Below, in pieces: positions 843 to 30,745 of a stretch of DNA of 32,000 nt (position 1 is its first letter; every line of letters begins with the position of its first letter). Source of the DNA: Candidatus Saccharimonadota bacterium (GTDB lineage Bacteria; Patescibacteriota; Gracilibacteria; UBA1369; 2-02-FULL-48-14); contig OZ246396.1 in NCBI GenBank assembly GCA_965230905.1, positions 1 to 32,000 of the forward strand. Direction: 5' to 3'. Below the pieces are notes generated by a model. The model ran no database searches, was not told where the DNA came from, and worked only from the letters and a program-made list of their open reading frames with translations. A program made the position numbers and the translations under genes.

Positions 843-1091
843 ATGACTCTTATCCCCATCGTCTCCATTGTCCTTGAGCTACTAATTGCTGTGCTAGCGC
901 TCGTTAGTGCAGTTCGCGGACGCACCTACATGGCTGGCCTAGCGCTGACCTTTGGTATTTACGTGTATTACGATTTGGCGCGACTCTATGAATGGTCCGT
1001 TTCGGAATCCTTGCTATCGGTTGTTTTTTTGATAGCCACGCTGGCGGCCTTGGTTTCGGTTGTTGGTATTTTTAAGGCTGGCTCCAAATAG
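843..1091 (+). CDS. small membrane protein (82 aa, 3 hydrophobic helices)
   Basis: The ORF has clear TM-like segments (LIPIVSIVLELLIAVLALVSAV, LALTFGIYVYY, LLSVVFLIATLAALVSVVGIF). Its last 106 nt overlap the 3' tail of the convergent Bro-N gene. Confidence 0.45.
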   Translation: MTLIPIVSIVLELLIAVLALVSAVRGRTYMAGLALTFGIYVYYDLARLYEWSVSESLLSVVFLIATLAALVSVVGIFKAGSK

Positions 1092-1945
1092 CTTTCTTTA
1101 CTCACCACTTTCTTACCGGTCTTCTGCTCTAATTCAAGGCGTGCGTTTTTAGCGACGCCTCCACCTGCCTTTCCAGCAGCCTTGTTCTCTTCCATTCCAT
1201 TTGCATTTTCACTATCAGCAATTTGACGAGTGGAAAGCTCCGCCAGAGCGGTAAAAATCAGTTCGGCCTCGGTCATGTGGTCGCGGAGGTTTTGCGACTT
1301 TAAGTTTTTGATTTCTTTATGTTCTTTAACACTTAGACCAGCCCACTCTGAATGGATGATATTGGTCAAAATGGCAAATTCCTTACCCTCCTTGATATCA
1401 TGCGTGCTCCAATAGTCGGTGAGTTTATTGCGTGTCTCCTGACCCATCATTCTTTGCTGAATCCACTTGTCACTGCGACCGTGCTTTTGCCAGTTTTCAC
1501 GAGCACGATTGAGCGACTTTTCCGGATCTGAAATTTCTTGTATTCTTTCGTATCCCACTTTTGCAAGCCATAGTTTTATAGGTTCAGCTTTTTTTGAGGG
1601 TATAGTTTGAATAAGACGTAATAAAGTTTCAATAGTTGCCACATCTGTCTTATAAAGTTTCCCGTCCGCAGATTTTAATTTCAGTTGGTCACATTTTGTG
1701 ACCAACTCACTACCCTCCTCTTTTAAGCGGTTTTTAAGGGTTGTCCAGTAGCTTTTTGCTTTTTTAAAATCAGTCTGTTCAGTCAAGGCTGCAACAATAT
1801 CAATCACAGAGAAATACCATGTTTCATTTTTCTCATCATAGTGCCTACGGATCTTGAAGTTTTCAAAGATGGCTAAAGCGTTGTTTCTCATAAGTATCTT
1901 GGATGCCTCTATCATAGGTGAGTGTCCACTCACCGTCAAGCGCAT
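986..1945 (-). CDS. Bro-N domain / DinD-like (DNA-damage-inducible protein D, antirepressor-type) protein
   Basis: The N-terminal FENFKIRRHYDEKNETWYFSVIDIVAALT is a typical Bro-N motif. The C-terminal half (NLRDHMTEAELIFTALAELSTRQIA ... AKNARLELEQKTGKKVVSKESYL) resembles DinD-type proteins. The real start may be M11 (1915) or M19 (1891). The last ~32 aa are low-complexity read-through into the antisense of 843..1091. The gene is visibly AT-richer than its neighbours. Confidence 0.8.
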   Translation of the reverse strand: MRLTVSGHSPMIEASKILMRNNALAIFENFKIRRHYDEKNETWYFSVIDIVAALTEQTDFKKAKSYWTTLKNRLKEEGSELVTKCDQLKLKSADGKLYKTDVATIETLLRLIQTIPSKKAEPIKLWLAKVGYERIQEISDPEKSLNRARENWQKHGRSDKWIQQRMMGQETRNKLTDYWSTHDIKEGKEFAILTNIIHSEWAGLSVKEHKEIKNLKSQNLRDHMTEAELIFTALAELSTRQIADSENANGMEENKAAGKAGGGVAKNARLELEQKTGKKVVSKESYLEPALKIPTTETKAASVAIKKTTDSKDSETDHS

Positions 1946-2208: not shown

Positions 2209-2667
2209 ATGACGCAGAAACCACAAAAACTTTACCACGGAACGAACAAACGCATCAGTGGAGCGCTTAAGCCGATTTTTGCAACGGAAAGGCTCGATTT
2301 AGCGGCGCTGTTCATGTTCCCTTTCGACCATATTGCGAGCATAGGATTTGAGGAAGACACCGCCTACATCTGCATTTGGGGTACGCCGGAAGCATTTGAA
2401 GAAAAAGATTTTGGTGGATTTATTTATGTGCTCCCCAGTACGACTTTTGAAAAAATCGGCAAAGATTACGAGTACCAAAGCTTTGAAGCGGTGGAACCGG
2501 AGACCACGAAAGTTTTTGAATCCGTAATCGACGGAATGATGGATTGCGGTGTACAGGTTTATTTTATTGATGATGAAGCAGTTTTTGATCAGATTGTGGC
2601 CGATAAGAAAAATCGCGCGCCCTTATTGAAGACTCTGGTTTCGGAGAATGAGAAGGAGGAGGATTAG
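2209..2667 (+). CDS. hypothetical protein (152 aa)
   Basis: This is ORF 2143..2667 trimmed to ATG 2209 (MTQKPQKLYHGTNKR...), because the upstream 22 codons overlap the divergent 1959..2165 ORF. No motif recognised. The C-terminus is acidic. Confidence 0.55.
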   Translation: MTQKPQKLYHGTNKRISGALKPIFATERLDLAALFMFPFDHIASIGFEEDTAYICIWGTPEAFEEKDFGGFIYVLPSTTFEKIGKDYEYQSFEAVEPETTKVFESVIDGMMDCGVQVYFIDDEAVFDQIVADKKNRAPLLKTLVSENEKEED

Positions 2668-3137
2668 CCTAAAAGGTTTCTGAGTTTTGGGAAGCGTTTG
2701 CAGATAGGAAGTTTGCCGCACCATGCGTCGAGGCCGTAAACGCGCCCGGCTTGAATCGCGACGAGGAATAGTAGAGCAAAACTATAAATGATGTGTTCAT
2801 CCACAATGAGTGCGTGTTCATTTGGGTATGGGAAACCGAGAGCGAGGTAGTAAAGCATCATCAAAAGAATTCCCAGTACGCCACTGAGTCGGACAAAAAG
2901 CCCAAGTATGAGGGAAACTCCTAAAAGGGTAAGTCCCCACTCATTCATAAAGTCTATGGCTGGCAAAAAGCTGGAATTGGCCATCCATACATAAAATCCG
3001 GTGGAGTCCGTTGCGTTTTCTAAATAACCCTGGGACGTCCACTCTGGGTCTAGGACCTTGGAGATCCCTGCGTAAAAAAACATCCAACCCAAGCTCACGC
3101 GAAAAAGAGTGAGTGAAATTTTTTGGAATTTTTTCAT
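2664..3137 (-). CDS. DoxX family membrane protein
   Basis: The N-terminus LFRVSLGWMFFYAGISKV is typical of DoxX. There are four hydrophobic helices in 157 aa. The start overlaps the VKOR stop in an ATGA (3134-3137). Confidence 0.8.
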   Translation of the reverse strand: MKKFQKISLTLFRVSLGWMFFYAGISKVLDPEWTSQGYLENATDSTGFYVWMANSSFLPAIDFMNEWGLTLLGVSLILGLFVRLSGVLGILLMMLYYLALGFPYPNEHALIVDEHIIYSFALLFLVAIQAGRVYGLDAWCGKLPICKRFPKLRNLLG

Positions 3138-3577
3138 GAAGCGCGTTTGGTGAGTTTATAAAGCGAGAGCGCAAAGGCCCATTCAATCAAAATAATGATT
3201 TGTTGGGTGACGCAGAATAGACAGTAGGTATGCAGCACAAAACTTTCCACGGCGGTGAGGTAAAGGGTGAAAGCCACTCCCCCGCTCAAAACTAAAAAGT
3301 ACCAAGGGATGAAGCGGTTTTGATTTTTCCGCAGTCCGCGCAGGGCGAAAATAAAGAAGCTGAGGTAGGCCGCGAAGCCAATGGCGGCCACGGGAACGCC
3401 AGCGATTTCCGCATAAATACTTTTGTTCACGATTTCACAATTCCACTGCTCCCCCAAATTACAAAAATCCGTGAGAGAGGGCTCAAAATGAACGTAAACT
3501 AAATAGCCGCTCACCACCATGCCCAAAAAGTTCAAGACTGCGAGGACTTTGTAATGCGTTTTTTGAGTGAGTTTCAT
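3134..3577 (-). CDS. vitamin K epoxide reductase (VKOR) family thiol oxidoreductase
   Basis: It has a loop cysteine pair CNLGEQWNC, a conserved S.Y....GVP.A..G segment (KSIYAEIAGVPVAAIG), and a CxxC in the last helix (YCLFCVTQQ). 4-5 TM segments. Confidence 0.8.
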   Translation of the reverse strand: MKLTQKTHYKVLAVLNFLGMVVSGYLVYVHFEPSLTDFCNLGEQWNCEIVNKSIYAEIAGVPVAAIGFAAYLSFFIFALRGLRKNQNRFIPWYFLVLSGGVAFTLYLTAVESFVLHTYCLFCVTQQIIILIEWAFALSLYKLTKRAS

Positions 3578-9020: not shown

Positions 9021-10496
9021 CTACTCTACCTTAAGGCTGATTTTTTTCAAAGGTGATAAGGCGGGGCCGTGCTGAACTTTGCCCAGAGCGGTGAATTGGG
9101 ACCCGTGGCAGGGACAGTCCCAGCACTTTTCACCGGTGTTCCATTTTACTATGCAACCCAAGTGCGGGCAGACCGCCGAGCGGGTGTGGAGTTTGCCAAA
9201 TTCGTCTTTATATACGGCCACTTTTTTCAGGTCTTTTTGAATGACGCAGCCTTCATTTTCTTTTAGGCCTTTGAGGGAGTCGCCGCCGATGGGAATGAGG
9301 TCCGCGTATTGGCAGGCCACGTTGAAGTTTTCTTTAAGATAAGTGGCGTTGAGTTTTTTTCGCGAGGGACGGTAGAGCGATTCCCAGGGAGATGTTTTGT
9401 GGAGTATGAGGTCGCGGATGAGGAGGCCGGACAGGGTTCCGTACGTAAGTCCGTTGCCGGAGAAACCGGTGGCTACATAAATGTGCTCGTTGCCGGGATT
9501 TTTTCCGATGAAGGCCAAGCCGTCCATGGTTTCCATCACCTGGCCCGACCAGCGGTATTCAATTTTATTTATTTGTGGGTAATTTTTGAGCGCCCACTTT
9601 TCGAGGTTTAGGAAACGGGCTTCCGTGTCTTTCTCTTGGCCGGTTTTGTGGTCCTCCCCTCCTATAATAAGGAGGTCGTGGGAGCTTTGTTTTTGAACGC
9701 GCACATAATGGTAGGCCTCCAGGTTGTCCCAAAACAGCATCGAGGGGACGCTGCCCGTGGGAATGCGCGCGGCGATGACGTAGCTGCGGTACGGATAAAG
9801 TTTAGTGTGGAGTTGAAAACGGTTCACCACCGGTGAATGCGTGGCCACGATGCAGTCCTTTCCCCAGATGGTTTGGCGAGTGCTGGTGGTCAGCGTGACG
9901 CCCTTTTTCTCGCTGAAGCCGGTGATGCGGGCTTGAAAAAAGCGGACGTTTTTAGCTTCGAGGATTTTGTGGAGGGCGCGGAGGTATTTTAGAGGATGGA
10001 ACTGGGCTTGGCGGGGAAAGTGCAGTGTGAGGTCTTTTTGAGTAGCAGCGCTGGGTGCGAGGCGGTCAAAGGCTTCCAGTTCTTTTTCCAGCTCTTCTTT
10101 TTGGTCTTCATAAAATTTCAGCTGGCCCTCCACGCGCTCAAAGTCGCAGTCGATTTTTTCTTTTTTAATAATGCGTTCGATTTCGCTGATGGCGGCATTG
10201 TGGCTTTCCCAAACCAGCTTGGCTTCTTTTTTGCCGTGATTTTTTTCGAGCTCAAAGTAGCGGTCGTCCAAAACGGCGGTGAGGTGAGCCGAGGTGTTTC
10301 CGGTTTCTCCCGCCGCGAGGCCACGCGAATCCAAAACCACCACACTTTTACCCGCTTCACTCAGGAGGTAGGCGGCGGTGATTCCACAGATTCCGGCACC
10401 CACAATAAGCACGTCTGCGCGCAGGTTTTTCTGCAAAGCAGCGAACGCGGCTGGCTTTTCATCGGATAGCCAAAAAGAAGTCGTAGACTTTTTCAT
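9021..10496 (-). CDS. FAD-dependent oxidoreductase with C-terminal Rieske [2Fe-2S] domain
   Basis: The N-terminal dinucleotide fold is [18 protein letters not shown]. The C-terminal Rieske ligand motifs are CPHLGC...(x)...CPCHGSQF. Confidence 0.85.
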
Positions 10497-13112: not shown

Positions 13113-14069
13113 ATGATCAACGATAAAGTCACTCAAATTTTCATGGATATCGCGGATCTGCTGCAAGTGCAGGGCGAGAGTATTTTTCGTGTGCGGGCTT
13201 ATCAACGTGCGGCGGAAGTCATAAAAGGTCTGCCGTTGGATTTGGAAGAAATGTATACAAAAGACGAAGCCTCGCTGGAGGAAATTCCGGGTGTGGGAGC
13301 GGAGCTTAAACTCAAAATCATCGACATTATTAAGACGGGCACTACGCCGATGTATGAAGAGTTGGTTCGTAAGCTTGGACCGGGAGTTTTGCAAATGCTG
13401 AGGGTGCGCGGAGTGGGACCAAAAAAAGTGAAACTCTTTATGGAGCAGCTCGACATTCACGATGTGCCAGCTTTGAAAGCGGCTGGTGAAAGTGGCGCAC
13501 TCGCAACCTTGCCCGGCATGGGCGAAAAAAGTCAGTCCGCCATCATGGAATCTTTGTCACAAATGACGCATTTGAAAGAACGAACGCCTTATGCAGTAGC
13601 GCTCAAACAAGCCGAAGACATGATCGCGTATCTGCAAACCTGCGAGTACTTCGACCAAATTCAGTACGCCGGCAGTTTGCGCCGCAAAATGAAGACCATT
13701 GGGGACGTGGATATTTTGACGACCGGTTCGAATCACGAGGCCATGATGAAACACTTCCTCGCCTATCCCGGGTGCAAACAGGTTTTGGCGGACGGTGCCA
13801 CAAAGTGCAGCATCGTGACCGACATGGACATGCAGGTGGATTTGCGCGCCGTGCCCGAGGAAAGTTTTGGTGCCGCGCTGTTTTATTTCACGGGACCCAA
13901 GCATTTCAATATTCATGTTCGTACCATTGCGCTTAAACGCGGCTGGAAGATCAACGAATACGGCCTCTATGAAGGTGAAAATTTATTGGCGAGCAGCACG
14001 GAAGAAGAAATTTTTGAGCAACTGGGCCTGCCTTACATGACGCCGCAGCAACGAGAAGATTTTAAATAA
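13113..14069 (+). CDS. polX: family X DNA polymerase, polymerase-beta-like core only (no PHP domain)
   Basis: HhH motifs are IPGVGAELKLKI, VRGVGPKKVKLF and LPGMGEKSQSAI. The nucleotidyltransferase motif is GSLRRKMKTIGDVDIL. It also has a thumb region (FGAALFYFTGPKHFN, INEYGL). It ends at LGLPYMTPQQREDFK*, where full-length bacterial PolX proteins continue into a PHP domain. Confidence 0.85.
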   Translation: MINDKVTQIFMDIADLLQVQGESIFRVRAYQRAAEVIKGLPLDLEEMYTKDEASLEEIPGVGAELKLKIIDIIKTGTTPMYEELVRKLGPGVLQMLRVRGVGPKKVKLFMEQLDIHDVPALKAAGESGALATLPGMGEKSQSAIMESLSQMTHLKERTPYAVALKQAEDMIAYLQTCEYFDQIQYAGSLRRKMKTIGDVDILTTGSNHEAMMKHFLAYPGCKQVLADGATKCSIVTDMDMQVDLRAVPEESFGAALFYFTGPKHFNIHVRTIALKRGWKINEYGLYEGENLLASSTEEEIFEQLGLPYMTPQQREDFK

Positions 14070-15363: not shown

Positions 15364-15996
15364 ATGGAAAATTTAATTGCAGTTCTACAAAAGAAAAGCA
15401 CTGAGCTGAATTTATTTTCAGCCGGTGACCGCCTGAAGCTCGCGGATAAACACATCCCCGACGCCCTGGCGGTTTTAGATTTCTGGGAACCGGGCGCGCG
15501 AGTGGCGGATATTGGAACCGGCGGTGGACTGCCAGGTTTGGCGCTGGCCTGTGAACGAAGCGACCTGGAGTTTACGCTGGTGGATTCTACGGCTAAGAAA
15601 ATTGAAGCAATAATGGATATGGCTGAGGAATTGGATTTGCAGAATGTTCAGGGGCTAGTGGGCCGCTTCGAAGAATTGGCGCACGAGCGAAAATGGCGCG
15701 AACAGTTTGATACGGTAACGGCCCGCGCGGTGGCGGAATTGCCCGTGCTTTTGGAATATGTCGCAGGATTTTTGAAAGTCGGTGGAAAGTTTTACGCGTG
15801 GAAGGCGGATTATGCGGCGGAGTTGGAAGCTTCGCGCGCCGCTCAGGATATTTTGGGTTTGGAATTTGTGCGCGCGCACAAGTACACCCTGCCGACTGGA
15901 GAGGATCGAGCGATTTTAGAGTTTGAAAAAGTGGCGGCGCTGGCACGAGAGTATCCACGGATGAATGGGGTGCCTAAAGCGAAACCTTTAGCCTAG
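15364..15996 (+). CDS. rsmG: 16S rRNA m7G527 methyltransferase RsmG (GidB)
   Basis: The SAM motif is ADIGTGGGLPGLALA. It also contains DSTAKK and the family-typical RA.A.L..L.E.....L..GG. Confidence 0.9.
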   Translation: MENLIAVLQKKSTELNLFSAGDRLKLADKHIPDALAVLDFWEPGARVADIGTGGGLPGLALACERSDLEFTLVDSTAKKIEAIMDMAEELDLQNVQGLVGRFEELAHERKWREQFDTVTARAVAELPVLLEYVAGFLKVGGKFYAWKADYAAELEASRAAQDILGLEFVRAHKYTLPTGEDRAILEFEKVAALAREYPRMNGVPKAKPLA

Positions 15997-16473
15997 AACT
16001 CGCCTCACCCTAGGATACTGCCGAACGATAAAGTCCTGCACGACACCAAGATCCAAGTATTCTTCCTGTAAATCAGGTGGGAGAAATTTGAAATCGGTTA
16101 CAATTCCACGGCAAGTCTCTGCTCCGCACGCACACGGCAGCGTCCAATTATCTTCATCCATAGTCGTCGAGTAGTCGAAGAAGATTTCAGTGCCGCGACG
16201 TATTTCTGTTAAGGCGGTGAGTGTGAATTTTCGCAGACCCGCATTGGGCATACAAGAATGGTTCACCAAAACGTCCGGCTCAGGAAGGTCTAGGTAGATT
16301 TCAGCTCCAATCTGCAGAGGGCATCCATCCACCGGTCGTGCGAGGGCTTCTTCAAGAGTAATGATCGGCCCTCTAAAATCCAAAATAGGCTCACCCTTTC
16401 GGATGTCTTCTTTTGCATAAACGCCACGTCCTGCTATTCTGGAATCTGCAACGGTGATTTTCTCAAGGCCCAT
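15988..16473 (-). CDS. SET domain-containing protein-lysine N-methyltransferase
   Basis: Motifs are GRGVYA...I.KGE, NHSCMPN, EIFFDYS and a post-SET-like Cys cluster CACGAETCRG. Its 3' end overlaps the rsmG 3' end by 9 nt. Confidence 0.85.
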   Translation of the reverse strand: MGLEKITVADSRIAGRGVYAKEDIRKGEPILDFRGPIITLEEALARPVDGCPLQIGAEIYLDLPEPDVLVNHSCMPNAGLRKFTLTALTEIRRGTEIFFDYSTTMDEDNWTLPCACGAETCRGIVTDFKFLPPDLQEEYLDLGVVQDFIVRQYPRVRRVLG

Positions 16474-22092: not shown

Positions 22093-25000
22093 TTATAGGT
22101 TGTGGCTTCGCTTGGTTGACGATTTAAAAGTGAGGCTGATACCCGCGATGGCGGTTACCAGGGCGCTGACAATGAGCATCATCATTTCGCTGGGCGTAGC
22201 ATTGAAAAGATTAGCACTTCCCAAGGATCCTTCAAAGACAACTTGGAGCGTCGAAATGTCGCTCTCGCCGGTGTCTTCATCGGTCACGGTGAGTTTAACC
22301 ACCACTTGGCCGTAGGATTTGAAGAAAGGTGTCTTCCAGGTTCCTGAGGAATCGTCGTCGTAGTCTTCGTCGTTGTCACGGAGGCCGTCGCCATCGGTGT
22401 CGTAGAAAATGTTTTTATCCAGCACGTAGCTGAAGTTTCCACTTCCGCCTTCGGCTCCGTAGTAGAAGGTCACTTGATCGCCGTCGTCTTCCAAAATAAC
22501 TTGGCTCAGGGAGTTCGGCTGAGGCGTAGAGGTGAACAGCGCGGTCACGGGCTCAACCGGGTTGGGCACCTCCACGGTTTGAATCACGGTGTCGGTTTTT
22601 CCAAAGGTGTCTTCCACCAACATTTTCACTTCGTAATCCCCATAGTCGTCGTATTCAAAGGTAGGATTCTTGGTGGTCGCGTCGCTGTCGTTTTCAGGAT
22701 CGGTGTCGCCGTCCGTGTCGGCGGTGAGGTTGAGATCCCAGCTGTAACTGCGTACATCGGCGCCGTTGGCGGTGTCGAGCACGGTTTCATTTTTGAATTC
22801 AACGGTGCGATCTTCCACGTTATACGAGAAGCCGGCAACGGGTGCTTTGGTATCGAGCACGTTCACCGCTTGGGTTACGCTGTCGCTTTGGCCGGTGGTG
22901 TCCACCACGGTCATCTTAACTTGGTAGGTTCCCAAGGCTTCGTAAGTGTAGGAAGGATTTTCTTCAAAGGAATCGGAGTCGTCGTCCACGGTTCCGTTTC
23001 CATTGCTGTCCACAGCCGTGTTGAAGTCCCAGTAAATTCCCGTGAGGTCGGCTCCGTTTTCGGTGTCTATAATAGAGTTGTTGCGGAAGCTCACGGTGGT
23101 TCCGTTGATGTCCGCCAAGAAAGCGGCATCCGGCGCGGCAGAAACCGCGTCCACAAAAATGGTGAGCGATTCGGAGGTGGCGGTGGCACCAGAGCTGTCT
23201 TCTACTTTGAGTTGAACCTCCACTCCCTCAGGATGGATTTGGCTGAAAGCGTATTCCAAGGATCCGTCTTCGGTGGGCTCGTTATCAAAGAATCCGTTTC
23301 CTTCAATGTCCCACCAGTAGTTCACAATTTCTCCATCGGTATCGTAGGAGGTGCTGGAGAATGTGATTTCTTCACCCACATAAACCGAGGTGCGGTTCAC
23401 GGTGAATCCAGCCACGGGGGTGTCGTTGGGCCCATTGGTGACTTCCAAAGTTGGGATGGTCGCCGCTTCGAGTTCATCGAAGGACGACACGGTGTTGTTT
23501 TGATTGTCCGTCACTTCCACCGCAAATCCATATTCCAGCGCTTCGCCGGTTTCGCCTTTCGTATTAATAGTCATGCTGAAGGTATTGCTCGCGGAACTGA
23601 TGGTTCCGAGTTCGGTCGCGGTGTCGTTGAGGTCGTAGTACCACGCTCTAAAGTTAGTGAGCTTGCCGTCTTCATCGGTGGCATCCACCGTTACATTTAC
23701 TTTGAGCGGCGTTTCCAAACTGTCCCCTTGCGGAATCACGGTGAGCCCCAGAATCTCTGGGTCGATTCCTTCTATAGTGATGAGCAGTGAGGTTTCGTCG
23801 GTGATCGCGTTGTCGTCTTCATCACGCACTGTCAATTTCACGGTGTAGGTCGCGGTTTCAGTGAAGGTATGCGTTACGCTGGGTTGAGAGGAAGTGACTC
23901 CGTCTCCAAAATTCCAGCTGTATTCCAAGCCGTTCTTGCTTCCGTCCACGTTCACGGACTCGTTTGCGTCGAAACGGAACTGAGTTTTAATGCTTCCACG
24001 GAAATCTGCGCCGCTGCCAATGTCTTCTCCATTGGAACCGATGCTGATCACGGCGATAGGGCTGTCGCCCGCTCCTATATATACACGCTGGGTGATGGAA
24101 TTTCGGTCTTCCTCATCGTCGAGTGCGGTCAGCGTTACTTCAAAGACGCCGGCGGATTCGTAGATATGCGTGAAGATGGCTTCCCCACGAGTCACCGTGT
24201 CCGTGAAATCCACCGTGTCGTCTCCGTAGTCGATTTCAAAAGCAGTTCCCGTTTCGCTGAGAGCGCTGAATTCCACTTCGGCTTCTCCGTTTTCGTCCAA
24301 ATTACGAGCGGTTTCGCCTTGAATATCCAGGTCCACGTCGAGCACGGAATCTATGGTGATGCTACCGATGGCCGTGTCGCTCTTTTTGAGTTCGGCGTCG
24401 TGCTGATCGTAGGCGGTTAAGGAAACTGCGTATTCTCCTTCATTGAGGAATTGAACGGTGATTTCTTTATCTTCATTTTCGGTGTCGATGATTTCATAGT
24501 CCTGCCCTTCGATTCCATCAAAATCCCATTCCAAGGTCACTACGTCGCCTTCATCGGGGTCGTAGGTGGTGCTGGCGTCGAATAAGACGGTGGCGGGTTC
24601 AGTCGCATTGGGAATAGAGTACTCGTAAGTGGCCACGGGCGCCGTGGATTCCACTAAGACTTGGCCGGTTGCAGTGTCGGTTTTTCCGCTTCCGTCCGAA
24701 ACGGTGAGCGTTACGCTGTAGACACCCGGCTGATCCAAAACGGTGCTTAAGGTGGATTCGGTTCCGTTGGTCACGGGCACCGTCACGCCATTTTTACTGA
24801 TGTCCCACGAGTAACTCACTATTTTTCCATTTTCGGTGGTGGACCCAGAGGCATCGAAGTCAAACTCGGTGTCCACGGTTCCTTCGCTGGGGCTGGCTTT
24901 AAAGCGAGCTGCGGGCGAAGCCACGTAGAGTGTGAAGTATTTGCGGTCTTTGATTCCGGTGTCGTCTGTAACGGTGAACGAAACATTGTAGGAACCGGAT

Positions 25001-27099
25001 CCGGCGTAAGCATGGGTCACGGAGCTGCCTCCGTCTTGGCCATACGGACCGGAAGAAGTTTCATTGTCTCCAAAGTCCCATTCATAATAAACGATTCCGC
25101 CTTCGGCTCCGGTGTTGCCGTCTCCGTCGGTGGTTCCGCTGGCATCAAATAGGATGCCGGTCTTTGCTTCGGTCTCTGTCACTTTAAAGTCGTTTTGATC
25201 GATGTAAGGATAGGTTCTAAAATCTGCAATGGTGGCGGGCGTTTCGGTCCCCACTTGAGCGGTGAGCACCAGCATGGATTTAGAAGGTTCTACGGAAATC
25301 GTCACGGTAGAAACTCCGGCCGCGATGTCTGGATCCTTGCTGCGTACTCGTACGCGCACTCGGTAGGTTCCCGGCTCGCTAAAGGTCGCACTCACCGCGT
25401 CCCCGGACGTGTCTTCCGACGTCACGGCGGTGGTGTTTAAAGTTCCGGGAGCCTCGTCTGTTCCAACGGGTTCATAGGTTCCATCTCCGTTCAAATCCCA
25501 TTCAATTTGAGCATCTTCCACCGTCATTCCGCTGGGGTCTTCCGTTCCCAGTACATCGAAGCGCACAATGAGCGGATCGTTTCCAGAAGTGGTGCTGGCG
25601 GAGAGTCGTACTTTTACGAATTCCAAATTCTCCACCAAAACATAAAGGTCATTCATGGACGCCACAATTTGATTGGCGGTTTGAGCGTTTACATCGCTGA
25701 CGGTTGCGGCGGCGTTGAGCTTCTCGCTGGCGGTGGTGAAAGCCTCGAGCACAGCGGTGAGGTTGGACCCAGAATCAAAATCTCCGGTGTCAAAAAGCCC
25801 CTGCATCACATCAAAGCGAAACACGAGGTCCTCCACAGCCTCCGTGTAGTCGGCGATGGCTTTATTCTGAATTTCTTCCAAGAATCCACACACGTTGTCA
25901 TCTATATCCACAATATCCACTTCATAAATAGTCACACCCAATCCGAATTCCCGTTCCACTTCTGAGGAAACTTCACGGCTCGCACAAGAATCGCTTGTTT
26001 CAATGCCTTGCTCGATTTGCGTGATGATTTCTTCTACTGTGAAGGGGGCCGTGGGTATTGCGGCCGTGGCCTCAGGAATCACCAAGGCCCACAAGGTGTC
26101 TAGGATTGAAGATTGAGTCCCACTGCGCAAATAGTTGTAGAGCGCCTGTGCGGCTTCAAAGGTTTGGCTGAGGTTATCCACTTCTCCCTGAATATCATCC
26201 ACTCCTTCGCGGAGCATATCTATATAGTCTTCCACATCGCTTTCATCGATGAGCTTGTATTGGTCGGCAAAGTCATCGTCGGCCCCTTCGGCCCATTCTA
26301 TTAAGTACTGAAGCAATCCATCCAGCGTCCAGTCGGTTTCTTCCACATCCAGCAGGATCGGCATTTCTACCGATCGCATGTAGGCCACCTCCTGGCTCAC
26401 AGTGAGCAGGGTTTGGTAGGCTTTCACGTATTCCACGCTCACGTCTTCAATTTCTTCCAATACGCTTTCGGTATCAAAGGAAGCTCCAGTTTCGGTGATG
26501 GTGGTTCCATCTACGCTTTCGACGTCCCCGTTGGAATCTCCTCCTCCCGCTTGGAGCAAGGTGTTCACCAAGGCGTAGGAACCTAAAATAATGACAATAC
26601 CAATGGCGGCGTAGCCAATGCTCTTCTTTCCTTTAGAAGCCATTTCTTCATCCCCACGGCTCAGCACATACATAAGTCCTCCGTAGATCACAATCACCAC
26701 AGAGATCAATCCCAAAAATCCCAAGGCGTAGTTCACTATGCTTTGAATGAATTCACGGGCGCTCTTATTTTCGGTCAGGCTTTCGTCGTAACCCGCCTCA
26801 CTAGGTGGCTCCAATTTTCCATCGTACTCGGTAAAGTCGATCACTTCATCCGTACTGTCACACCCCAAGCCTCCACCAAAACCCTCGGCTAAGTCGGCAC
26901 ACTGCGATTGAATGATGTCTCCTTGAGCGGAATCAGAATCTCCTCCCGTTCCCAGCAAAGCGTCCACCGCGTCAGATCCTGATTCCACACACTCTCCATT
27001 GAGTGAAAAACTACACTCCTCTGCATTAGCAAAAGGCGCCGAAACTAAACTCAAACTAAGAGCAACAAGGAAGGTGGCAAGGGATCGGCGGAGGTTCAT
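22093..27099 (-). CDS. giant surface protein (1,668 aa): signal peptide, Cys-paired head, one VirB2/TrbC-like pilin hairpin, acidic region, ~11 PKD/Ig-like repeats, C-terminal TM + basic tail
   Basis: ORF 22093..27192 trimmed to ATG 27099, giving MNLRRSLATFLVALSLSLVSAPFANA|EEC, a good signal peptide. The hairpin reads IVNYALGFLGLISVVIVIYGGLMYVLSRGDEEMASKGKKSIGYAAIGIVIILGSYALVNTLL. PKD signatures include IEWDLNGDG, YEWDFGDNE, YSWDISKNG, LEWDFDGIE, FEIDYGDDT, YSWNFGDGV, YWWDIEGNG, IYWDFNTAV and YSWDLNLTA. The C-terminus is MMMLIVSALVTAIAGISLTFKSSTKRSHNL. Confidence 0.85.
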   Translation of the reverse strand: MNLRRSLATFLVALSLSLVSAPFANAEECSFSLNGECVESGSDAVDALLGTGGDSDSAQGDIIQSQCADLAEGFGGGLGCDSTDEVIDFTEYDGKLEPPSEAGYDESLTENKSAREFIQSIVNYALGFLGLISVVIVIYGGLMYVLSRGDEEMASKGKKSIGYAAIGIVIILGSYALVNTLLQAGGGDSNGDVESVDGTTITETGASFDTESVLEEIEDVSVEYVKAYQTLLTVSQEVAYMRSVEMPILLDVEETDWTLDGLLQYLIEWAEGADDDFADQYKLIDESDVEDYIDMLREGVDDIQGEVDNLSQTFEAAQALYNYLRSGTQSSILDTLWALVIPEATAAIPTAPFTVEEIITQIEQGIETSDSCASREVSSEVEREFGLGVTIYEVDIVDIDDNVCGFLEEIQNKAIADYTEAVEDLVFRFDVMQGLFDTGDFDSGSNLTAVLEAFTTASEKLNAAATVSDVNAQTANQIVASMNDLYVLVENLEFVKVRLSASTTSGNDPLIVRFDVLGTEDPSGMTVEDAQIEWDLNGDGTYEPVGTDEAPGTLNTTAVTSEDTSGDAVSATFSEPGTYRVRVRVRSKDPDIAAGVSTVTISVEPSKSMLVLTAQVGTETPATIADFRTYPYIDQNDFKVTETEAKTGILFDASGTTDGDGNTGAEGGIVYYEWDFGDNETSSGPYGQDGGSSVTHAYAGSGSYNVSFTVTDDTGIKDRKYFTLYVASPAARFKASPSEGTVDTEFDFDASGSTTENGKIVSYSWDISKNGVTVPVTNGTESTLSTVLDQPGVYSVTLTVSDGSGKTDTATGQVLVESTAPVATYEYSIPNATEPATVLFDASTTYDPDEGDVVTLEWDFDGIEGQDYEIIDTENEDKEITVQFLNEGEYAVSLTAYDQHDAELKKSDTAIGSITIDSVLDVDLDIQGETARNLDENGEAEVEFSALSETGTAFEIDYGDDTVDFTDTVTRGEAIFTHIYESAGVFEVTLTALDDEEDRNSITQRVYIGAGDSPIAVISIGSNGEDIGSGADFRGSIKTQFRFDANESVNVDGSKNGLEYSWNFGDGVTSSQPSVTHTFTETATYTVKLTVRDEDDNAITDETSLLITIEGIDPEILGLTVIPQGDSLETPLKVNVTVDATDEDGKLTNFRAWYYDLNDTATELGTISSASNTFSMTINTKGETGEALEYGFAVEVTDNQNNTVSSFDELEAATIPTLEVTNGPNDTPVAGFTVNRTSVYVGEEITFSSTSYDTDGEIVNYWWDIEGNGFFDNEPTEDGSLEYAFSQIHPEGVEVQLKVEDSSGATATSESLTIFVDAVSAAPDAAFLADINGTTVSFRNNSIIDTENGADLTGIYWDFNTAVDSNGNGTVDDDSDSFEENPSYTYEALGTYQVKMTVVDTTGQSDSVTQAVNVLDTKAPVAGFSYNVEDRTVEFKNETVLDTANGADVRSYSWDLNLTADTDGDTDPENDSDATTKNPTFEYDDYGDYEVKMLVEDTFGKTDTVIQTVEVPNPVEPVTALFTSTPQPNSLSQVILEDDGDQVTFYYGAEGGSGNFSYVLDKNIFYDTDGDGLRDNDEDYDDDSSGTWKTPFFKSYGQVVVKLTVTDEDTGESDISTLQVVFEGSLGSANLFNATPSEMMMLIVSALVTAIAGISLTFKSSTKRSHNL
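22234..25614 (-). repeat. array of ~10-11 PKD/Ig-like domain repeats (coding), the last three with Asp-rich Ca-binding-like inserts
   Basis: PKD signatures recur every ~90-110 aa. The inserts DSNGNGTVDDDSD, DTDGDTDPENDSD and DTDGDGLRDNDEDYDDD resemble thrombospondin-type-3 / DxDxDG calcium loops. There are no cysteines in the array. Confidence 0.75.
26551..26763 (-). other. single VirB2/TrbC-like pilin hairpin module inside the giant protein
   Basis: Two TM helices are joined by the loop SRGDEEMASKGKKS. This matches the six modules of the two upstream genes, and its helix-2 ending SYALVNTLL is like their third units. Confidence 0.7.
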
Positions 27100-27178
27100 T
27101 TTGATATCGCTTGCGCGATGTCTTATTAGGCACTGACGTGCTTGGTGGCGTATTTCCATGGTAGTATAGAGGTTTTTA

Positions 27179-28150
27179 TCAGGACGCATCAAGAGTAACC
27201 ACTGTATTCACAATGGCGAAGGCGGCGAGTGCCAGAATAATTCCCACGGCGGCTCCCATCATGATCTTCTTGGATTTGGCTACGTTGTCCTCGTTTTGAG
27301 CGCCCAGCGTGTACAAATAACCGGCGTACAAAAGGAAGGCAAAGGCCAAGGTTCCCATGGTTCCGACAATAAAGTTGGTGACTTGAACAAAGAGCAGCTT
27401 GGCTTCGTCGATTCCCAATTTGGTTCCTTGGTTTTGAAAAAGCACTTCTTTAACGGCGAACTCAGAAATTCCAATAACAAAGAGTCCCACCAAAGCCCAG
27501 GTGATTTGCTTCTTAGCTTTGGCGATTTGATCGTCGTTGGCGCTGCCGGCCACATAACGCATACCGGCCGTAACCAACATGAACACGGCAATGGAGGCAA
27601 TCACCACTTCCACCAGCCCATAAATTCCCGCAAAGAAAGTGGAGCTTTGTCGTCCAAATTCCTTAGCAGTGTCTTCTCCCGAACGTAAAATCTGGCCTTC
27701 GGCACCAAAGAACACTTCAATCAGTGAATCCGATACGAAGATGAGAATGAGTCCTTGCAGAGCATAACTGACAAAATTCTTGGATTGGCTGAGCACTTCT
27801 TCATTGTCTCTTCCGGCCGTGACCATACGTATTCCCATCATCACAATGAACAGAATGGCGATGGGGGTCACCATCAGTTTAAAAAAGTCCAGGAAGCGTT
27901 GAATGGCGGCCACAATGATGTCCGCCCCTTCCCCTTGTTCCGAGAAACTGGGCAACTCAATACCACCAGAGGGTTCAGCATCCGGATCGGCGTCTTCTTC
28001 TCCATCTTCCACTTGGCTGCTTTCTTCACTCACGTCTTCCTGCAAATCTTCCAGAATATTCTTATAATTGAAATCATCGGCCAGGGCCAACGCAGAGGGT
28101 GCGAAGACCAGGGAGGAAAGAATCGTCAATAAAAGAAGGATTTTTTTCAT
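27179..28150 (-). CDS. secreted membrane protein with three tandem VirB2/TrbC-like (T4SS_pilin-type) hairpin modules (323 aa)
   Basis: The signal peptide is MKKILLLLTILSSLVFAPSALALA|DD, followed by an acidic linker. The three units lie at nt 27707-27922, 27437-27643 and 27194-27403, with loops TAGRDNEEVLSQSKN, AGSANDDQIAKAKKQ and LGAQNEDNVAKSKKI. Confidence 0.8.
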   Translation of the reverse strand: MKKILLLLTILSSLVFAPSALALADDFNYKNILEDLQEDVSEESSQVEDGEEDADPDAEPSGGIELPSFSEQGEGADIIVAAIQRFLDFFKLMVTPIAILFIVMMGIRMVTAGRDNEEVLSQSKNFVSYALQGLILIFVSDSLIEVFFGAEGQILRSGEDTAKEFGRQSSTFFAGIYGLVEVVIASIAVFMLVTAGMRYVAGSANDDQIAKAKKQITWALVGLFVIGISEFAVKEVLFQNQGTKLGIDEAKLLFVQVTNFIVGTMGTLAFAFLLYAGYLYTLGAQNEDNVAKSKKIMMGAAVGIILALAAFAIVNTVVTLDAS

Positions 28151-28151
28151 A

Positions 28152-29081
28152 TTAGAAGGATCCGGTGATTACTGTGGATACCAGGGCAAAGGCTCCGTAA
28201 ATAATGATCACTCCAATGATGGAGTTGAAAACAATTTTTTTGGCGAGGCCGGTTCGTTCTTCGTCTCCACCGGCAGTAACATATAAAATTCCTCCTGCTA
28301 CGATTCCCAGCATCATGATGGGCCCCACAAAAGTAATGATTAAATTGGTGACTCCAACCAATTGTTGCACAAATTCATTTTGATCGAGCTTCACAATGGT
28401 TTGATTGGCGTTTTCATTGAATTCGGCCACGTAGAACACGCGGCGAATCATCAGGTCAGACACAATCACCATCAGGAGCCCTCCAGCCGCCAAGGCCAGA
28501 CTTTTCTTCTCCTTCCCCACTTCTTCTTCGTTGTCTCCGGCAACCACCATCATGGCTCCGCTTCGGATAAACATCAGGGAGGCGAGTCCTCCCAAGAGGT
28601 ATTTCACAAAAGTAATGATGAGACGGGTCGTGTTGTCGAAAAGTTGAATCCGCTGCACCAGCTTATCGGGGTCGGAAATAAAATTTCCTTCGCGGTAGTC
28701 GAAGACTTCGGCAATAGGGCCGGCAATACTGATCATTAGGAGTCCTATCAACCCGTAGGTCATGGACTTTTTCTGGGTTTTAGCCGTTTCTTCGTTGTCG
28801 CCGGAAATCACCATAGTGAACCCGGAAACCACAATAAAGAGCAGCGCCACCCCACCCACAATGATGCGCAAATTGCGTGCCGCGGGGCCGAGCAGGTTTT
28901 CCAGTTTTTCAAAGGCGCTGTCTCCTTCCGGAGCCGGCACGTCCAAGTCGTCGTTGCTTGGCAAAGGCAAGAAATCCGCTAAGGCATGCGGCGCATGAGC
29001 GGCCACCGCACCCAAAACCACAGCGAGCACAAGGCCCCCTAGGTGCAGTTTTCCAACTTTTTCAAACAGAGATCGTGCCAT
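28152..29081 (-). CDS. secreted membrane protein with three tandem VirB2/TrbC-like (T4SS_pilin-type) hairpin modules (309 aa)
   Basis: The signal peptide ends AAHAPHALA|DF. The three units lie at nt 28701-28904, 28431-28640 and 28164-28376, with loops ISGDNEETAKTQKKS, VAGDNEEEVGKEKKS and TAGGDEERTGLAKKI. The third unit (GGILYVTAGGDEERTGLAKKIVFNSIIGVIIIYGAFALV) is very close to the canonical single-hairpin CPR pilin-like proteins I remember. Confidence 0.8.
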   Translation of the reverse strand: MARSLFEKVGKLHLGGLVLAVVLGAVAAHAPHALADFLPLPSNDDLDVPAPEGDSAFEKLENLLGPAARNLRIIVGGVALLFIVVSGFTMVISGDNEETAKTQKKSMTYGLIGLLMISIAGPIAEVFDYREGNFISDPDKLVQRIQLFDNTTRLIITFVKYLLGGLASLMFIRSGAMMVVAGDNEEEVGKEKKSLALAAGGLLMVIVSDLMIRRVFYVAEFNENANQTIVKLDQNEFVQQLVGVTNLIITFVGPIMMLGIVAGGILYVTAGGDEERTGLAKKIVFNSIIGVIIIYGAFALVSTVITGSF

Positions 29082-29123: not shown

Positions 29124-29152
29124 ATTATAGCAGAAAATGATCTGAAAGTAAA
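29124..29152 (-). promoter_or_regulatory. putative sigma70-type promoter of the hairpin/PKD operon, TTTACT-17 nt-TGcTATAAT (extended -10)
   Basis: The reverse strand reads TTTACTttcagatcattttctgcTATAAT. It is followed by a ~40-nt leader containing the hairpin GACCC-tatc-GGGTC (29096-29109) before ATG 29081. Confidence 0.4.
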
Positions 29153-29502: not shown

Positions 29503-30051
29503 ATGGCAAAACAGGCAAAAAACACCGGACGAAACTGGTACGTGATCCACACCTATAGCGGGTATGAAGACGCGGTTCGGGAAGCGCTTCTACAGCGTAT
29601 TGAATCCATGAACATGCAAGACAAGATTTTTGATGTGATTGTGCCTAAAGAAACGCAAATTGTGGTGAAGAAAGGTAAGCCAAAAACAGAGAAAAAACGT
29701 CTTTTCCCAGGTTATGTGCTCGTGGACATGACCGTAGACGATGAATCTTGGTACGTGGTGCGAAACACCCCCAACGTGACCGGGTTCGTAGGTTCTGGAA
29801 CCATTCCAGTGCCCGTTTCTGGAGAAGAATTCGGCGTGATTCAACGTTACCTCGAAGACGACAATGCTCCTAAGTTCAAGATCACGCTCAGCAAGACGGA
29901 TCTCGTTATGGTGCTGGATGGACCTTTTGCGGGTTACGAAGGAGTGGTGAACGAAATCGATGAAGAAAAGGGTAAAGTGAAGGTAATGATCTCCATCTTC
30001 GGACGCGAAACGCCTGTGGAATTGGATTTTGATCAAGTTAAGAAGAAGTAG
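29503..30051 (+). CDS. nusG: transcription termination/antitermination factor NusG
   Basis: The NGN domain shows NWYVIHTYSGYEDAV and FPGYVLV. The KOW domain shows DGPFAGYEGVVNEIDEEKGKVKVMISIFGRETPVELDFDQV. Confidence 0.95.
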   Translation: MAKQAKNTGRNWYVIHTYSGYEDAVREALLQRIESMNMQDKIFDVIVPKETQIVVKKGKPKTEKKRLFPGYVLVDMTVDDESWYVVRNTPNVTGFVGSGTIPVPVSGEEFGVIQRYLEDDNAPKFKITLSKTDLVMVLDGPFAGYEGVVNEIDEEKGKVKVMISIFGRETPVELDFDQVKKK

Positions 30052-30121
30052 TAAGATTGGATGGCTTCGCCACTTTTTAATAGGCACTAAAGTGCCTGGC
30101 CTCCGCTACGCTGCGGTCTGC

Positions 30122-30745
30122 ATGCAGAAACTCACCCTTTTTTCGGTTCTGCTTTCTATCTCCGTGATCCTCATCGTGGGAGACATTGTCTTTCATGACT
30201 ATTTAAACGAGTTCGAAGCCACAAGCCCCGTGGAGGAAACTTCTGAAGTCGCACCTTTAGATGAAGAGGCGCCTGTGGATCTTTCGGAAGAAACGGAGCC
30301 CACTTTGATTGAGTCATCGCTGAGTGCGGCGCTGTTCACGCAGGCTGGGTTTGTGCAACCGGTGCTCAAAGACACTATTTTTTCCGGCTTGGTATTCCAG
30401 TTCATTTCTTTTGCCGATCAGGAAGAGGCCACGGTCTACCAATGGAACGTTTTTGACGGCGAGCAGTACGTTGGCAGCGTGTATGAGATGAAGTACCCTA
30501 CCGAAACCGGCAGTTTTCAGGGTTATTTGGCTCTGCGGGAGCGCGCCATGAGTCTTATGGACTTGGGAAGCGTGAACGAAGTGAACAATTATGGAAACGC
30601 GTCTTTCTACTTCAATCACAAGACCAAAGTTAAGACTGTGCACGTGGTGGTTCGCAGTGGGAATGACATTTATGGCTTTGAGTACGCACAGACGAATCAT
30701 GAAAAGATGAAAAATGTGTTTGACAGCCTAAGCCCCCTTCTGTAG
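30122..30745 (+). CDS. hypothetical membrane-anchored protein (207 aa) inserted between nusG and rplK
   Basis: ORF 30029..30745 trimmed to ATG 30122 ([24 protein letters not shown], an N-terminal TM anchor). The upstream codons overlap the nusG end. An acidic linker is followed by a ~130-aa globular part. No motif recognised. Confidence 0.6.

Follow-up and report, generated by a model that had tools for sequence, protein, structure and literature searches.

VirB2-like pilins are among the gene families most enriched in the Candidate Phyla Radiation (CPR), or Patescibacteria, and are essential in Southlakia, the only species examined by transposon sequencing (PMC10633639, PMC12102498, PMC12857230). 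They are encoded in 441 described arrays of 2-11 genes, which are highly variable and often lie near virB4 (PMC12102498). The prevailing view is that these proteins build the pilus of a Gram-positive-type type IV secretion system (T4SS), and they remain least understood. We analyzed a 32,000-nucleotide stretch of DNA from Candidatus Saccharimonadota bacterium (assembly GCA_965230905.1, contig OZ246396.1, positions 1 to 32,000; hereafter the window), in which a minus-strand gene at 22093-27099 encodes a 1,668-residue protein with a VirB2-like membrane hairpin near its N-terminus and a long array of PKD and immunoglobulin (Ig)-like domains. The interest of this giant protein centers on the conserved four-gene, seven-hairpin module to which it belongs.

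The giant protein shares with VirB2/TrbC pilins and the pilins of the patescibacterial arrays (PF18895; PMC12102498, PMC10633639) a signal peptide and two helices joined by a short charged loop, and as in the arrays several hairpin genes stand in tandem in a CPR genome. Here, however, the hairpin is a 70-residue module within 1,668 residues, the neighboring proteins carry three hairpins per polypeptide, and the operon adjoins secE-nusG instead of virB4. Whereas the hairpins of described arrays average 25% mutual identity (PMC12102498), those of this operon form seven conserved orthologous classes. Canonical VirB2/TrbC pilins are small stand-alone proteins (roughly 70-150 residues) encoded in T4SS clusters. 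The giant protein is far longer, and neither the window nor the neighborhood of its relatives places it in such a cluster; on both grounds, size and genomic context, it falls outside the canonical VirB2 pilins. The Mbov_0395 family (NF045849) likewise combines a VirB2-like hairpin with a bacterium lacking an outer membrane, but sits in integrative and conjugative elements (ICEs) of Mycoplasma, whereas our operon has no ICE or T4SS context. The NF045849 model (cutoff 40 bits) detects three hairpin proteins of the operon, the giant protein at 32.6, a 309-residue protein at 37.3 and a 323-residue protein at 40.6 bits, and we rejected membership of the giant protein in this family on its score below the cutoff.

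Other CPR surface proteins resemble the extracytoplasmic part. Very large, membrane-associated, repeat-rich proteins with a supposed role in attachment have been described from epibionts (Vampirococcus lugosii, PMC8080830; Peribacteria, PMC4736985), but in the family of the giant protein the number of domains is fixed, the anchor is a pilin-type hairpin, the four-gene setting is obligate and cysteine is almost absent, whereas the large Peribacteria proteins reported in 2016 are cysteine-rich (PMC4736985). Pam pili are a CPR-specific surface structure of Ig-like folds as well (bioRxiv 10.64898/2026.03.03.709456). Their pilins use donor-strand exchange with chaperones, neither of which is present at our locus, and the PamR model NF058578 scores 36.8 bits against a cutoff of 300, aligning with one PKD-like stretch only (residues 953-997); we thus discarded the giant protein as a Pam pilus component. 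The literature searched contains no mention of triple-hairpin polypeptides, of a fusion between a pilin hairpin and a giant Ig array or of a secE-adjacent operon of this kind.

A conserved module of four genes and seven hairpins

The giant gene is the third of four close-set genes, with intergenic gaps of 1, 79 and 13 nucleotides. From the upstream end, the features of the operon are as follows.

29124-29152, minus strand: promoter-like site TTTACT-17-TGnTATAAT in the operon upstream region, a consensus match only
28152-29081, minus strand: first operon gene, 309 residues, signal peptide and three T4SS_pilin hairpins
27179-28150, minus strand: upstream partner of the giant gene, 323 residues, signal peptide and three T4SS_pilin hairpins
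22093-27099, minus strand: giant gene, 1,668 residues, NCBI MEK9160157.1
19908-22079, minus strand: downstream partner, 723 residues, Pro/Ala-rich cytoplasmic N-terminus, three transmembrane (TM) helices and six PKD domains

Scanning a single genome for each GTDB species, we located 80 related loci, all from Peregrinibacteria, Peribacteria or metagenome-assembled genomes (MAGs) labeled 'Gracilibacteria'. In 53 of these we found a full-length, colinear ortholog of 1,376-2,038 residues (two of them interrupted), with reading frames intact in the standard code; together with the window protein they form the family of 54 to which the counts below refer. Each domain of the window protein aligns with a counterpart in nearly all members, PKD domain 10 alone being clade-specific. 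The order 3-hairpin, 3-hairpin, giant, and 3TM plus six PKD (about 690-830 residues in relatives) is fixed in virtually every locus that is long enough, in about 50 species, and secE-nusG-rplK follows on the other strand wherever the contig extends that far. Because the orthologs are colinear and the neighborhood is fixed, the module is ancient and lineage-wide. An earlier interpretation of the window made without database searches (the sequence-only reading) had called the protein a chimera, a label that misleads for an architecture this old and colinear in 53 species, and the same orthologs rule out a recent fusion or an assembly artifact.

The hairpins are arranged as 3+3+1 in about 46 species and fall into seven orthologous classes (A1-3, B1-3 and C1), with cross-species identities of 32-62% within and 18-35% between classes; the nearest hairpin from another species is of the same class in 84-100% of cases. 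This pattern fits fixed positions in one assembly, not interchangeable or antigenically variable pilins. Within the giant protein the hairpin is the best-conserved part, with a mean pairwise identity of 64% compared with 36% in the preceding head, 19-23% in the helical module, 31-51% in individual Ig domains and 25% in the tail, a peak that would be expected of a docking module.

Two family members are interrupted. In one MAG (L021:4923-9368) a 1,200-residue open reading frame (ORF) is followed by a 281-residue ORF that carries the tail, and in another (L031:10311-14942) the C-terminus is aberrant; both are probably frameshifts or assembly errors. In four related genomes the operon is followed by a clade-specific plus-strand gene for a protein of ∼810-880 residues with one N-terminal TM helix and no Pfam match (L018:17613-20057, L023:7725-10316, L034:8896-11325 and L036:10426-13065), a gene absent from the window.

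The operon is divergent from secE-nusG-(238-residue ORF)-rplK-rplA, and its four proteins are named only 'PKD domain-containing protein' or 'hypothetical protein' by NCBI. We detected no VirB4, VirB6, relaxase or sortase among the ORFs of the 32-kb window. Of ten large flanking ORFs in the relatives, nine have no Pfam match (E<=1e-5) and the tenth contains Ig domains only; none encodes VirB4. Promoter-like matches in the window are not more frequent than in shuffled sequence, and terminator-like matches on the operon strand fall within coding sequence. Elsewhere in the window, the ORFs either are housekeeping genes or lack a family match. The 238-residue ORF between nusG and rplK (30029-30745, plus strand) is of the latter kind and is kept at this place in most relatives. 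A 319-residue protein (986-1945, minus strand) matches the Bro-N domain barely above the cutoff (27.2 bits); this domain typically occurs in genes of phage or viral origin. Pfam matches also identify a 161-residue SET-domain protein (15988-16473, minus strand) and a PolX-like protein with HHH_8 and DNA_pol_B_thumb domains (13113-14069, plus strand), both uncommon in small bacterial genomes.

Domain organization of the giant protein

The giant protein divides into six parts.

27022-27099, minus strand: signal peptide, residues 1-26, with a cleavage site between ANA and EE assigned from sequence
26764-27021, minus strand: acidic extracytoplasmic head, residues 27-112, with C67/C80 and an F89..G94..P99..GYD..LT motif conserved
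26551-26763, minus strand: VirB2-like membrane hairpin, residues 113-183, Pfam T4SS_pilin (PF18895), a pair of TM helices linked by a short charged loop
25615-26550, minus strand: acidic helical module, residues 184-495, four or five long predicted helices, family-specific
22234-25614, minus strand: cysteine-free array, residues 496-1622, ten PKD domains and one divergent Ig-like domain (residues 1133-1208)
22096-22233, minus strand: C-terminal motif GSANLFNATPSE, TM helix (residues 1639-1658, nucleotides 22126-22185) and tail KSSTKRSHNL

This anatomy agrees with the sequence-only reading in every part, from the signal peptide to the basic tail, and the 1,668-residue product from ATG 27099 is borne out by the ORF list and by NCBI, which calls the same product as a 'PKD domain-containing protein' (MEK9160157.1; contig JBBTQH010000001.1, GCA_038078855.1). 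The choice of start had been made between 27099 and 27192, the start of the 1,699-codon ORF (22093-27192, minus strand), overlooking a third start, ATG 27159. This codon is clear of the upstream gene, whose stop lies at 27179, is preferred by another gene caller (P0014) and yields 1,688 residues with a basic N-terminal extension of 20 residues. Near-clade orthologs have an additional Met 5-7 residues before the Met of 'MNLRR', and a weak promoter-like match at 27192-27163 would favor ATG 27099. The mature protein is identical with either start. The N-terminus, MNLRRSLATFLVALSLSLVSAPFANA followed by EE, is a standard Sec signal peptide, and a signal-peptide-like segment is present in all orthologs.

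Hydropathy defines three further hydrophobic segments, at residues 117-149, 160-184 and 1636-1660. The first two form the hairpin, about 4% of the protein, which matches PF18895 over residues 113-179 with 33.5 bits (cutoff 26.6), above the gathering score, and is a bona fide T4SS_pilin member; the related TrbC model PF04956 stays below its threshold (25.7 versus 27.9 bits). AlphaFold places the hairpin helices at residues 114-146 and 151-184 with a predicted local distance difference test score (pLDDT) of ∼70, and the charged loop between them is SRGDEEMASKGKKS. The positive-inside rule is satisfied by both this loop and the C-terminal tail. Deduced from Sec-insertion rules and charge distribution, the topology would thus have the head outside, the SRGDEEMASKGKKS loop inside, the ectodomain outside and the basic tail inside.

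At a further set of loci in sister genomes (L066-L081, ∼9830-10320) we found small stand-alone VirB2-like pilins of 135-148 residues, 44-59% identical to the giant hairpin. Their genes lie outside T4SS clusters and directly 3' of a gene with a putative MurB-like N-terminus (by inspection), and some of these loci appear to use genetic code 25.

Cysteines are found exactly at positions 29, 37, 67, 80, 372 and 404, and none occurs beyond residue 404, so that the absence of cysteine from the PKD array described previously holds. The accompanying proposal of three disulfides is weakened because just one pair is widely conserved. C67/C80 is kept in 31-32 of the 54 members, whereas C372/C404 is confined to the near clade (11-14/54) and C29/C37 lies in an insertion found solely in this genome; residues 27-66 of the head are missing from most orthologs. 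A single conserved extracytoplasmic disulfide, C67/C80, thus appears plausible from the alignment. The window does contain, as previously pointed out, a VKOR gene (3134-3577, minus strand, 147 residues) adjacent to a DoxX/MauE-like gene (2664-3137, minus strand, 157 residues), the two overlapping by 4 nucleotides. They likely constitute an extracytoplasmic disulfide-formation pair, and their tie to the cysteines of the giant protein, whose operon lies 19 kb away, is circumstantial.

Acidic residues make up 22% of the helical module. Long helices are predicted at residues 210-243, 286-326, 402-433 and 446-490 (pLDDT 74-88, AlphaFold with ten sequences), and the models as a whole reach a pLDDT of 40 with four and 55 with ten sequences. 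The alignments were limited to these numbers because word-index protein searches returned family fragments only (77-569 residues), although the collection holds the window protein. HMMER over representative proteins does find full-length members, and the word-index search is therefore poorly sensitive for this family. With residues 184-500 as query, phmmer located seven proteins among 1.84 billion representatives, and all matches longer than 1,000 residues (among them three of about 1,600-1,700 residues) align at the corresponding position. A profile search of the PDB returned weak coiled-coil-like matches only, and Foldseek against the PDB found no match at E<=1e-3. The module is therefore helical, specific to the family and without a recognizable solved homolog.

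The PKD array scores above the gathering thresholds of PF18911 (PKD_4, 208.7 bits) and PF00801 (PKD, 172.2 bits) in nine stretches, and a custom profile of the repeats themselves resolves ten clear PKD units plus a divergent Ig-like one (residues 1133-1208), in line with the earlier estimate of about 11 repeats. Asp-rich, DxDxDG-type loops are indeed present in the last three, repeats 9-11 (DSNGNGTVDDDSD, DTDGDTDPENDSD and DTDGDGLRDNDEDYDDD). We also considered a colinear duplication between this array and the PKD domains of the 723-residue partner; such a pattern is absent, and the sole pair with a close mutual relationship is repeats 9 and 10.

The C-terminal tail

The protein ends with GSANLFNATPSE (residues 1627-1638), the hydrophobic helix MMMLIVSALVTAIAGISLTF (residues 1639-1658) and the basic decapeptide KSSTKRSHNL, the layout described by the sequence-only reading, which took it either as a second membrane tether or as a sortase- or exosortase-like sorting signal. 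With substrates of the LPXTG, PEP-CTERM, GlyGly-CTERM and PGF-CTERM type it shares a motif followed by a hydrophobic helix and a basic tail, placed at the very C-terminus of a long surface protein with Ig repeats. In contrast to those signals, the tail of the giant protein is not matched by any of the models, occurs on one family only, has no enzyme encoded nearby and has been lost in one clade. NCBIfam, including its curated C-terminal signal families, returned nothing at E<=10 for the terminal 42 and 59 residues. Ahead of the TM helix stands GSANLFNATPSE, which contains no LPXTG-like pentapeptide. A sortase A has been reported from Peribacteria genomes (PMC4736985), for which the tail offers no LPXTG-like motif. 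Neither the 32-kb window nor the conserved operon encodes a sortase or another sorting enzyme.

A true sorting signal is carried by several cargo proteins of a genome. Searches of databases and of related loci for the same C-terminal pattern on other proteins returned orthologs only, a restriction that the sequence-only reading had itself named as weakening a sorting signal. A profile of ten tails matched one entry in a database of 5.8 billion proteins, a 77-residue ortholog fragment. Back-translated G[GS]ANL[FL]NAT gave 33 pattern matches in 241 million metagenome records, of which tblastn confirmed four, all ortholog ends: two proteins of ∼1,650 residues with the same last PKD domain and two contig-end fragments. 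Among 9,498 ORFs of the window and of 84 related loci (1.3 Mb), a hidden Markov model of the tail likewise found orthologs only.

Among the 54 family members, 36 end with a TM helix and a basic tail, 16 stop after the last PKD domain ('...EIKF[KQE]') and two are interrupted. When we clustered the family on the rest of the protein, all 16 tail-less members grouped in one cluster and every other cluster was tailed, which makes the tail an ancestral feature with a single loss. The near clade shares the juxtamembrane motif G[GS]ANL[FL]NATPx[EQ], which loosens family-wide to a small-N/S-[LIV]-[FL] pattern 8-12 residues before the TM helix. Found on one family, with no enzyme gene nearby and lost throughout a clade, the tail behaves like an ordinary stop-transfer anchor. 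Its restriction to orthologs and its single loss fit an accessory anchor, and the C-terminal TM helix is most likely an ancestral, dispensable stop-transfer segment. Of the two earlier proposals, tethering at both ends is thus favored as the default outcome of Sec insertion, since head and ectodomain would lie outside and loop and basic tail inside, but it does not extend to the 16 tail-less orthologs. The sorting-signal proposal is not supported: no NCBIfam model matches, the tail is confined to orthologs, the window has no sortase and a 16-member clade does without the tail.

A proposed fiber subunit docked into a hairpin platform

We propose, with a probability of roughly one half, that the giant protein is the fiber subunit of a lineage-specific, four-protein envelope assembly of Peregrinibacteria, with the hairpin as its docking part in a heteromeric membrane platform. 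The protein would be exported by Sec and lose residues 1-26 to signal peptidase; its VirB2-type hairpin would insert with both ends outside and the charged loop in the cytoplasm, leaving the helical module and the putatively Ca2+-stiffened PKD/Ig array (about 1,450 residues) outside the membrane. The C-terminal hydrophobic segment would act as stop-transfer sequence and place KSSTKRSHNL in the cytoplasm, so that the fiber would have two tethered ends here and a single one in the tail-less clade. The giant hairpin may then pack with the six hairpins of the two triple-hairpin proteins into a platform of seven non-equivalent hairpins, to which the 3TM/6PKD protein would add a second, shorter Ig stalk. 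The probable role is that of a fixed-length surface or wall-spanning fiber for envelope organization or host-cell contact. A junction between the giant hairpin and the triple-hairpin proteins had been suggested before; synteny and the seven classes strengthen it and make it plausible, and the docking itself is one that we infer from conservation and gene order.

Several points weigh against this assignment. The contacts between hairpins are deduced, and confidence in the AlphaFold models is low to moderate (pLDDT of 40 and 55). A VirB4 machine or a C-terminal protease may be encoded elsewhere in the 1.3-Mb genome, of which we scanned the 32-kb window, and a juxtamembrane motif that persists across deep divergence could reflect recognition by an enzyme. 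VirB2-type hairpins of other systems exit the membrane to build pili, and a T4SS pilus is the proposed product of the VirB2-like arrays in Patescibacteria (PMC12102498, PMC12857230).

A pilus is the alternative to which the last points lead. On leaving the membrane, the triple-hairpin proteins would polymerize as a VirB2-type filament through a T4SS encoded elsewhere, and the giant protein would be a minor basal or tip pilin with a PKD adhesin. All seven hairpins match T4SS_pilin, and the clade lacking the C-terminal TM helix could leave its fiber end free. In the F-pilus both pilin termini are reportedly on the exterior, so that short hairpin linkers and a large C-terminal appendage would be geometrically possible. 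The proposed pilus function of the patescibacterial arrays and the essentiality of these proteins in Southlakia lend this model further weight (PMC10633639, PMC12102498, PMC12857230). However, there is no T4SS gene beside the operon, in the window or in the conserved neighborhood; the C-terminal TM helix of 36 of the 54 family members would hold the giant protein within about one fiber length of the membrane; and seven fixed classes in strict order resemble a stoichiometric complex, not a polymer of variable paralogs. We therefore consider the pilus model rather unlikely. Still less probable is that the giant protein is an ordinary repeat adhesin, for which the hairpin is a mere convenient anchor and the neighboring genes act independently. 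PKD arrays are common in surface adhesins, and the NCBI label is merely that of a PKD domain-containing protein; giant PKD-bearing membrane proteins also occur in related CPR such as Vampirococcus (PMC8080830). Yet the domains keep a constant number and order and the Ig domains are individually orthologous across species, unlike in fast-evolving repeat adhesins, the four genes are held in strict order in about 50 species, and a hairpin identity of 64% is far above the need of a plain anchor. Least probable, and in our view improbable by a wide measure, is a new sorting signal, by which a dedicated transpeptidase or protease would cut the tail and leave the C-terminus of the fiber wall-attached or released. 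The tripartite layout of LPXTG and PEP-CTERM signals, a juxtamembrane motif recognizable across the family and the reported Peribacteria sortase A (PMC4736985) speak for it; the lack of a model match or an LPXTG-like pentapeptide, the confinement of the tail to orthologs in every search made, the lack of a sorting enzyme in window and operon, and the dispensability of the tail in one clade speak against it. The tempting claim of a new sorting signal hence lacks support here.

The locus shows another use of the VirB2-like hairpin, as part of a module that combines a putative giant Ig-repeat fiber with triple-hairpin polypeptides in more than 50 species, with no T4SS gene nearby. It provides a testable system for the question whether such hairpins serve as membrane platform or filament in bacteria without an outer membrane, and a candidate for the core surface structure of an entire uncultured lineage. 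Beyond the proposed fiber assembly, and only as a tentative extension, the module could be a T4SS-independent organelle that defines the Peregrinibacteria, a heteromeric ring or short stub of 3+3+1 hairpins in the membrane or wall, bearing two PKD fibers of fixed length for host contact or wall organization. If this were true, VirB2-type hairpins would serve CPR bacteria as a general, modular means of assembly and anchoring, beyond their role as pilus subunits.

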